Shown here: piece by piece, positions 2 through 1,191 of the stretch | Layout of the letters: every line of letters starts with the position of its first letter | How positions within the stretch are numbered: the stretch's first letter is position 1 | From: Naegleria gruberi | Taxonomy: Eukaryota | Assembly (NCBI GenBank): GCA_000004985.1 | Contig: GG739511.1 | DNA: 1,191 bases | Direction: 5' to 3' (one strand) | Made by a program: the position numbers and the translations under genes | Notes under the pieces: model-generated | The model's input: only the letters and a program-made list of their open reading frames with translations | Databases searched by the model: none | Told to the model about the DNA's origin: nothing

Positions 2-160
2 AAACCAAAGTTTGTCAATCCAGAAGTTAGAATTGCCATGGAAAAACTAGCTAAACTTCCACTTGTCATGAGTTGTGATGCTTGGTTGAATCAATATGAC
101 CCAGGTCTTTTGGAAAATGCTGAAGAAGGTCAAGAAGAAGATCTAACAAGCAGTAATTAA
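2..160 (+). CDS. 3'-terminal fragment of a protein-coding gene (52 codons + TAA stop at 158-160); product not recognised; acidic C-terminal tail. The CDS continues upstream of the window
   Basis: Frame 2 is the only frame on either strand open across 2-157. The other two + frames and all three - frames carry multiple stops here. Translation: KPKFVNPEVRIAMEKLAKLPLVMSCDAWLNQYDPGLLENAEEGQEEDLTSSN*. It is amino-acid-like, with a hydrophobic core and a Glu-rich tail. Codon choice is consistent (GAA x8, AGA, CCA, GGT). Composition drops abruptly to about 8% GC immediately after the TAA. Confidence 0.6.
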   Translation, partial: KPKFVNPEVRIAMEKLAKLPLVMSCDAWLNQYDPGLLENAEEGQEEDLTSSN

Positions 161-260
161 TTGTAAATAAATTTTTGAGATTTGAATTTAATAATTTTAT
201 TTAATTATTAATAATAAAAAATTAAATAAAAATTAAATACTGTTAATTCTTTATAAAGTA
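161..260 (+). other. Extremely AT-rich (about 8% GC) 3' UTR / intergenic tract with AATAAA-like motifs (first at 166-171) and short AT direct repeats (AATTAAATA x2 around 222-240)
   Basis: Direct base count of 161-260 gives about 8 G/C in 100 nt. AATAAA sits 6 nt past the stop codon and further copies follow. This is typical of a eukaryotic 3' UTR / polyadenylation region, but its function cannot be confirmed without transcript data. Confidence 0.35.
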
Positions 261-281
261 CGAATTGTTACAGAACTAACT

Positions 282-346
282 AGACTAACGCTGAAGCCTG
301 GTAAAAAGTGTCGCTCGCGACCCTTAAACAAATGGCAAAGTTACAA
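282..346 (+). repeat. Left terminal inverted repeat arm (outer block 282-297, diverged spacer 298-329, inner block 330-341, partial match continuing to about 346)
   Basis: Manual reverse-complement alignment against 1062-1129. The 16/16 and 12/12 cores are flanked by weaker similarity (TTACAAAAA versus CAAGAAAAA). The spacer is roughly 50% identical. Confidence 0.5.
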
Positions 347-469
347 AAACTCGCGCCCCCGCTTAATGTTTAAATTTAATAAAAAAAAATTAATTCCTCA
401 TCACTACTCACACCATCATCGGAACTGTAGTCAGCACCAGAGGCACCAAGTCACCTTCCATATCATTGG

Positions 470-691
470 TCAAAAACAAATATCTTGTGATGATGTCAAT
501 CCTATACACCTCGTTCGCCTTCCCACCACAGTGGAGGTAGTTTTTGTTATGTACTTTCTCTGCCTCTCTCCTCTACGGTAAGTCTTTTCGAAAACTTCAT
601 ACTCATCTCGTGGACCATTAATTAATTCGTAATTGTTGTATGATGGATTCCATTGCTGTAAAGAACATCGCCAAGTGCCGCAGGAAAACAA
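470..691 (-). CDS. Unsupported 73-aa ORF inside the element. It may be a remnant or captured coding fragment rather than a gene
   Basis: It is the most protein-like translation in the interior (…WNPSYNNYELINGPRDEYEVFEKTYRRGERQRKY…). But it is short, overlaps the + strand ORF 366-581, has no recognisable family, and sits in a 43% GC island bounded by TIRs. Confidence 0.12.
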   Translation of the reverse strand: MFSCGTWRCSLQQWNPSYNNYELINGPRDEYEVFEKTYRRGERQRKYITKTTSTVVGRRTRCIGLTSSQDICF

Positions 692-1037
692 GTAGCCATA
701 GTGTTGTTAACATGAAGAATGTGAAATGGTTTTAAGGGTTGTCTTCCTTCAGCAAGAATATCATAGATGGAAGTAGACAAATCCTTGCTGTTGACCACCA
801 ACGAATTTGGAGAAGTTACACCTTATTCTTTGACCAGTTATTGGTGGAGAGGAATTATGCGAATTGGAGCACTCTAGGTTGCTTGTCATCCTTGTCCACT
901 AGTACTCTGATACGGTTGTTGGTAGAAACATTACTTTAATCTTCAATAAAACCACTATTTAAAGGTGAAAAATTTCTTTTTATTTCAAATTTTATTCGTA
1001 ACGGTGTTGGCGGGCTGTTTTGCAAGGAGGGAAATCT

Positions 1038-1090
1038 CTGACTTTGCATTTTTGCCCATTTTTCTTGACTTTGCCATTTTTTTGACAAGG
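1038..1090. repeat. Degenerate tandem sub-repeats inside or next to the right arm: CTGACTTTGCATTTTTGCCC / CTTGACTTTGCCATTTTTTTGAC. These are reiterations of the inner TIR motif
   Basis: TTGAC/CTGAC occurs at 1038-1042, 1065-1069 and 1082-1086. TTTGC(A/C) and ATTTTT units alternate. Reverse-complemented, these read AAAATGCAAAGT, AAAATGGGCAAA and AAATGGCAAAGT. That is three near-copies of the motif, which occurs once on the left arm. Confidence 0.45.
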
Positions 1091-1129
1091 TGTTTTTTGG
1101 GCCGTCTTTCAGTGCTTCAGCGTTAGTCT
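1062..1129 (-). repeat. Right terminal inverted repeat arm (inner block 1068-1079, spacer 1080-1113, outer block 1114-1129)
   Basis: Reverse complement of 1062-1129 aligns with 282-346 at the same block order and near-identical spacing. Confidence 0.5.
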
Positions 1130-1191
1130 GGGGCTTTCCGCATTTTTTCCTCTTTTTAAATCGCAAATTCTGTTCTGCAAACAGCGAATTG

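Follow-up and report, generated by a model that had tools for sequence, protein, structure and literature searches.

At each end of piggyBac, a terminal repeat of 13 bp is followed inward by an internal one of 19 bp, the spacer between them being 3 bp at one end and 31 bp at the other (PMC3073922), and in the Emigrant MITE the pogo-like Lemi1 transposase binds both the terminal repeat and subterminal motifs (PMC1636448). For MITEs, high copy number is the decisive criterion (PMC5172404). The non-autonomous elements of the Helentron type, called HINEs, carry subterminal inverted repeats of 12–15 bp, which lie 2–4 nt from the 5′ end and 38–60 bp from the 3′ end; they have no target-site duplication (TSD), carry a 3′ palindrome and are easily mistaken for MITEs (PMC4067079). 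As for Naegleria, DNA transposons, including repeats classified as piggyBac and EnSpm, have been reported at low levels, with piggyBac in N. lovaniensis (PMC6125883), and most of the repeats of N. gruberi are unclassified (PMC12344493).

Here we consider a stretch of 1,191 nt of N. gruberi DNA, referred to below as the window, in which an 848-bp segment at positions 282 to 1129 is bracketed by an inverted repeat made of two blocks at each end. In our judgement there is an even chance that this segment is a DNA transposon copy, non-autonomous or decayed, bounded by terminal inverted repeats (TIRs).

The two-block inverted repeat and its setting

The features of the window are listed with coordinates, strand, description and basis.

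2–160, plus strand: 3′ end of the host gene, 52 codons and a TAA stop at 158–160 (HMMER, blastn, codon score)
161–281, plus strand: left flank, AT-rich 3′ UTR or intergenic tail, 12% GC, with AATAAA motifs (composition, sequence)
282–297, plus strand: left terminal block, AGACTAACGCTGAAGC (inverted-repeat search, shuffles)
329–341, minus strand: left subterminal motif, ACTTTGCCATTTG, which holds the perfect 12-mer at 330–341 (motif scan, arm alignment)
372–391, no strand: possible third colinear block in the left arm, A/T-only (alignment score 29)
411–822, minus strand: coding-like stretch in the successive frames −1, −3 and −2 (codon log-likelihood)
971–992, no strand: possible third colinear block in the right arm, A/T-only (alignment)
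1041–1053, plus strand: second right-arm copy of the subterminal motif, in direct orientation, ACTTTGCATTTTT (direct-repeat search, motif scan)
1068–1080, plus strand: right subterminal motif, ACTTTGCCATTTT, which holds the perfect 12-mer at 1068–1079 (motif scan, arm alignment)
1114–1129, minus strand: right terminal block, reverse complement of 282–297 (inverted-repeat search)
1130–1191, plus strand: right flank, 40% GC, cut by the window end (composition, flank comparison)

Window positions 282–297 and 1114–1129 form a perfect inverted repeat of 16 nt. A second perfect inverted repeat, the 12-nt AAATGGCAAAGT, is found at 330–341 and 1068–1079, where it falls within a 24-nt pair of arms that are 83% complementary. 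The order of the blocks is equal at both ends, and the spacers between them measure 32 nt on the left (298–329) and 34 nt on the right (1080–1113). No further copy of the terminal 16-mer occurs within the window, with up to 3 mismatches allowed.

As a null model, 2000 dinucleotide-preserving shuffles of the whole window were used. Two of them contained perfect inverted matches of 16 nt or longer whose arms were separated by more than 100 nt, and none contained the colinear pair of blocks. The inner arms, aligned locally after removal of the 16-mer, reach a best score of 29, a value matched by 2 of 1000 shuffles. When the two arms were joined by a GAAA loop and folded as DNA, they gave the expected interrupted stem, at −37.8 kcal/mol (z = −8.5). 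It might be objected that two inverted matches could coincide in AT-rich DNA, the 12-mer and the possible third block being A/T-rich and low complexity being known to inflate matches of such kind. However, because of the shuffle tests, chance is effectively refuted as an explanation, and we attach next to no credence to it. A first reading of this DNA, made from its letters only, had described two perfect inverted matches in equal order and at near-equal spacing, held their joint occurrence by chance to be very unlikely and proposed that the joined arms should fold into a long stem; all three points are upheld by these results, and the two-block inverted repeat is confirmed as real and non-random.

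The sequence between the blocks bears on how such ends arose. When aligned with gaps, the two spacers agree at about 50% of positions, which makes them essentially unrelated, and the blocks are perfect; therefore, the ends look two-part by design and not like decayed long repeats. Under neutral decay of once-identical long arms, the survival of a perfect 16-mer would have a probability of about 0.6^16, or about 3e-4. The subterminal motif is present in three good copies, all of them pointing inward, and two of these are direct copies within the right arm, 27 nt apart (1041–1053 and 1068–1080). With up to 3 mismatches, the motif has five matches where 1.3 are expected, a result seen in none of 200 shuffles. 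The possible third block was also found by alignment, and its score of 29 was reached in none of 1000 mononucleotide shuffles, but the sequence is of low complexity; since it consists of A and T only, it is weak evidence. It hints at arms that would extend to about 110 nt on the left and about 160 nt on the right.

The host gene precedes the segment. Frame +2 is open from base 2 up to the TAA at 158–160, and HMMER matches the 52-aa peptide to the C-terminal end (41 residues) of P0003, a 740-aa protein encoded on a metagenome contig (59% identity, E 5e-5); the sole relative of P0003 is the Naegleria fowleri hypothetical protein FDP41_011035 (55% identity). At the nucleotide level, blastn aligns window positions 41–139 with 13498–13599 of the N. 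fowleri locus (L005) at 73.5% identity (E 1.8e-11), and the codon log-likelihood of the gene end, 2–160, is +14 bits per 40 codons. Judged by these similarities, the flanking gene is the orthologue of FDP41_011035, and the proposal that the segment lies just downstream of the 3′ end of a gene, which here has its stop at 158–160, holds. By this match, the window is eukaryotic DNA from a Naegleria-like heterolobosean distinct from N. fowleri. FDP41_011035 is an uncharacterised protein of 1077 aa, without a Pfam domain. The gene order around it (Kazal_2 ... ParcG, then the FDP41_011035 orthologue) is common to N. fowleri and the metagenome contig, the loci compared being 10001–13602 of L005 and 4861–7083 of the contig locus, L006.

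The segment has a GC content of 37–41%, against 12% in the adjoining left tail. Since the right flank is also 40% GC, the right boundary is unmarked by composition. If 282–1129 is taken out, the intergenic DNA amounts to 121 nt plus at least 62 nt, i.e., at least 183 nt; in the N. fowleri locus, the next gene begins 195 nt beyond the end of FDP41_011035. Nothing similar to 160–1191, or to either repeat block, was found at the syntenic loci of N. fowleri and the metagenome contig. The similar size of the gap and the lack of similarity at the loci of these relatives fit an insertion, a comparison tempered by the fact that intergenic DNA is expected to be unconserved at such an evolutionary distance regardless.

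The ends compared with those of described elements

No TSD of 2–10 bp abuts positions 282 and 1129, where the flanks read aactaact and ggggcttt. The flanks share no adjoining direct repeat of at least 4 nt, and by eye the 2-nt (ct/gg) and 3-nt (act/ggg) neighbours mismatch as well. Without an abutting direct repeat, the segment lacks the TSD that hAT, Mutator, PIF and piggyBac elements call for, including the 8 bp of hAT and the 9–10 bp of Mutator. A TSD could be read only in a TA that lies within the repeat, at 286–287 and 1124–1125, and this leaves the four symmetric outer bases (AGAC/GTCT) unexplained. Perfect terminal blocks without a TSD are awkward for the transposon reading, being a poor match to a young cut-and-paste insertion.

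Some short repeats are present around the two junctions. Positions 273–290, at the left junction, hold a 9-nt tandem in which the flank duplicates the beginning of the arm, GAACTAACT followed by AGACTAACG, with ACTAAC at 275–280 and again at 284–289. As the right end has no match to it, this tandem is not a TSD; it could be the product of slippage or of micro-homology at the junction. Outside the arms, the direct repeat CGAATTG is found at 261–267, 14 nt ahead of the left arm, and at 1185–1191, 55 nt past the right arm and at the window end, and an inverted match pairs CAGAAC (271–276) with GTTCTG (1172–1177). Both pairs are short enough to be due to chance.

In the sequence-only reading, the layout was taken for that of a MITE or of a foldback element. 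The part of the MITE proposal that stands is the inverted terminal and subterminal blocks, which are real and non-random: a terminal inverted repeat of 16 bp is accompanied by a subterminal block of 12 bp. The resemblance to Emigrant and other MITEs goes further, in that terminal repeats and inverted subterminal motifs are combined with the lack of intact coding capacity and a position beside a gene (PMC1636448; PMC5172404). The differences are the absence of a TSD at the repeat ends, the length, 848 bp against a few hundred, and an interior that looks like a decayed ORF. MITEs are usually well under about 800 bp and have no coding capacity; at 848 bp, with a coding-like, frameshifted interior in which no ORF is intact, the segment would hardly be a typical MITE. 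In a foldback element, long arms account for most of the length, which makes the left half complementary to the right half. Comparison of 396–705 with the reverse complement of 706–970 gives a score of 22, which 136 of 1000 shuffles match; the left and right halves of the interior are not complementary, and a foldback element was rejected.

With piggyBac, the segment shares ends in which one perfect repeat is terminal and another internal, with a spacer between them (PMC3073922). However, the spacers of piggyBac are strongly asymmetric (3 and 31 bp), whereas those of the segment are 32 and 34 nt; a TTAA flanks each piggyBac end, whereas none occurs within 270–300 or 1110–1140; and no remnant of a piggyBac transposase was found. 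A likeness to Tc1/mariner (Stowaway-like) elements can be drawn from the TA that is symmetric in both arms, so that the segment is readable as TA + ACGCTGAAGC...GCTTCAGCGT + TA. In that case, chance or a target preference is needed to account for the symmetry of the outer AGAC and GTCT. To our knowledge, moreover, the ends do not resemble Tc1/mariner termini.

Another candidate comes from a different class of elements. The segment might belong to a non-autonomous rolling-circle element of the Helentron type, a HINE like DINE-1, which inserts without a TSD and in which the 16-bp repeats would be subterminal. The likeness consists of short perfect inverted repeats, about 13–16 bp, near the ends, together with the lack of a TSD and of coding capacity (PMC4067079). 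The true ends would then be displaced outward, by a few bases from 282 and by some tens of bases from 1129, a placement that we consider improbable. A T at 277 does stand 4 nt ahead of the left repeat, the GC-richer sequence extends past 1129, and a hairpin with a 5-bp stem is found at 1170–1184, 41 nt past the right repeat; but chance is expected to yield a 5-bp hairpin within 67 nt, and the 3′ end that it implies would fall beyond the window, at a distance of 63–90 nt from the repeat that departs from the published range. Nor are there runs of T, or evident T-rich sequence, at the putative boundaries, and the chance-level hairpin is the only candidate for the 3′ palindrome. The 16-mer is not palindromic itself. 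An equally spaced second block of 12 nt is not a described feature of HINEs, and no Rep/helicase remnant was found in the Pfam and protein-database searches. In favour of the Helentron reading, Helitron-class repeats have been reported in another heterolobosean, Acrasis kona (10.64898/2026.06.24.734286). On balance, we doubt that the segment is of Helentron type.

The hairpin at 1170–1184 reads CTGTT ctgca AACAG. On the other side, a 10-nt palindrome, CTTTATAAAG, lies at 249–258, 24 nt ahead of the left arm. Neither exceeds what chance would give, and they would be relevant only if the element were Helentron-like, with its ends outside the repeats.

DIRS elements, too, have inverted terminal repeats, which are unequal, and no TSD. 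A deletion derivative of such a tyrosine-recombinase retroelement would agree with the unequal arms, about 110 and about 160 nt, and with the absence of a TSD, and among the LTR-class repeats reported for N. lovaniensis, DIRS takes the largest share (0.32%; PMC6125883). However, no stretch that could pair with the termini was found in the interior, a third copy of the 16-mer is lacking even when 3 mismatches are tolerated, and no similarity to a reverse transcriptase or a recombinase was detected in any frame. We regard a DIRS-like origin as highly improbable.

The coding-like interior

The segment contains neither an intact ORF nor a tRNA, it matches no Rfam family, and alternative genetic codes open no long ORF. 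The interior is nevertheless coding-like on one strand. With a codon log-likelihood table trained on Naegleria genes from two loci (N. fowleri and the metagenome contig), the three minus-strand frames that succeed one another across 411–822 reach best 40-codon scores of +12.7, +7.4 and +6.6 bits, whereas the plus-strand frames of the interior stay at or below 1.8 bits throughout. The maximum is attained in 1% of shuffles and is near the +14 bits of the true coding end. A spliced minus-strand gene was considered and rejected, as no model joins the frames via the GTAAGT donor that was found in both N. fowleri introns examined. Since canonical introns do not join the frames, we read the interior as a relic ORF: the codon scores suggest that 411–822 would be the frameshifted remnant of a minus-strand coding sequence.

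The searches give this putative remnant no identity. Pfam has no match to the ORF pieces or to the frame-joined conceptual proteins, and PDB has none to the ORF pieces; the stop-to-stop segments of at least 30 aa within 282–1191 find nothing at E <= 0.1 in a database of 5.8 billion proteins, and an exact-protein look-up of the window ORFs gave no match. The joined conceptual protein of 138 aa has a weak match to the WGR domain of PARP2 (E 0.24). This candidate was dismissed after comparison with an alignment of the PARP1/2/3 WGR domains, with an hhalign probability of 0.7% and an HMM score of 3.1 bits.

A separate open frame of 84 codons, rich in Lys and Arg, occupies 939–1190 on the minus strand, passing through the right arm and off the right end of the window. 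In codon usage it scores a modest +3.9 bits, and it is without a homologue. As seen in a window that ends at 1191, it is probably non-coding.

A possible transposon copy or a repeat that never moved

How would a transposon of this kind have worked? According to the reading that we favour, the segment would be a single copy of a cut-and-paste TIR transposon, which we assign to no superfamily, inserted in the short intergenic region after a conserved gene of a heterolobosean amoeba. The outer 16 bp would serve as the site of terminal recognition and cleavage, and the 12–13-bp motif located 32–34 bp further in, of which the right arm has two copies, would be bound by the transposase as a subterminal site. 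A transposase encoded elsewhere in the genome, by an autonomous partner, would bind and pair both ends and move the segment, whose interior would retain only the remnant of a frameshifted minus-strand ORF. Because there is no intact ORF and yet a decayed, coding-like interior, the segment would have the character of a deletion derivative. The architecture of the repeat and its non-randomness, the host-gene setting, the coding-like interior and the lack of an intact ORF are observed; the role of the blocks as binding sites, the past mobility and the autonomous partner are what we infer. In favour of the transposon reading are the inward-pointing and over-represented subterminal motif, the contrast in GC between the segment and the 12% GC tail, and the orthologous locus of N. 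fowleri, which has 195 nt and nothing similar where the intergenic region is interrupted here. Against it, no transposase homology was detected in any frame (Pfam, PDB and the protein database), and beyond the repeats themselves no feature that defines a transposon was seen.

Copy number was approached through collections of metagenome, viral and prokaryotic genome contigs, from which the source genome is absent, and the two-block pattern has 0 matches there. In the same collections, again without the source genome, the only matches to a 19-nt terminal pattern were four of about 20 bp, at chance level, in unrelated contigs of 47–60% GC. Blastn against plasmids and phages gave no match, and a literature search for the 16-mer did not find it.

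The main alternative is that the segment is a single-copy inverted repeat that never moved, and that its blocks are short motifs, either functional or derived from recombination. One possibility is that proteins bind them and that they flank a small transcription unit on the minus strand, now frameshifted. Alternatively, they could be what is left of an old inverted duplication at this locus, whose copies selection or gene conversion has kept from diverging. Selection on short motifs also yields perfect blocks beside unrelated spacers, so the two-part ends can be accommodated; the absence of a TSD, the lack of a second copy in the collections searched, which exclude the source genome, and the host-like codon usage on one strand of the interior are likewise in keeping with DNA that stayed in place. 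The same may be said of the very low annotated transposon content of Naegleria, 0.13–0.28% (preprint 10.64898/2026.06.24.734286), and of the 2.5–5.1% of total repeats in Naegleria genomes (PMC6125883). On the other hand, the geometry of terminal and subterminal blocks at equal spacing is the look of transposon ends, the interior is without an intact ORF or canonical introns, and the syntenic locus of N. fowleri has nothing like the segment. It also counts against a stationary repeat that we know of no regulatory system in Naegleria with inverted motifs of 16 and 12 bp about 800 bp apart. A repeat that never moved is, in our view, unlikely, though it deserves to be taken seriously.

Finally, the absence of a TSD may be a property of the element. 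The segment would then represent an undescribed family of heterolobosean amoebae, mobile, bounded by inverted repeats and inserting without a TSD, with ends in two parts (16 bp, and 12–13 bp about 33 bp inside), be it a new Helentron-like lineage or an uncatalogued type of transposon in genomes that are poor in them. This is a speculative suggestion, and we would be surprised to see it borne out.

If the segment is single-copy, it is merely a local curiosity, and neither outcome touches a long-standing open question. If it is mobile, its integration chemistry would be notable, given that there is no duplication at the ends, and a recent insertion beside a conserved gene would be usable as a strain or species marker. 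In that case, it would also add another unclassified family of DNA transposons to a lineage, Naegleria and its relatives, whose repeats are sparse and mostly unclassified.
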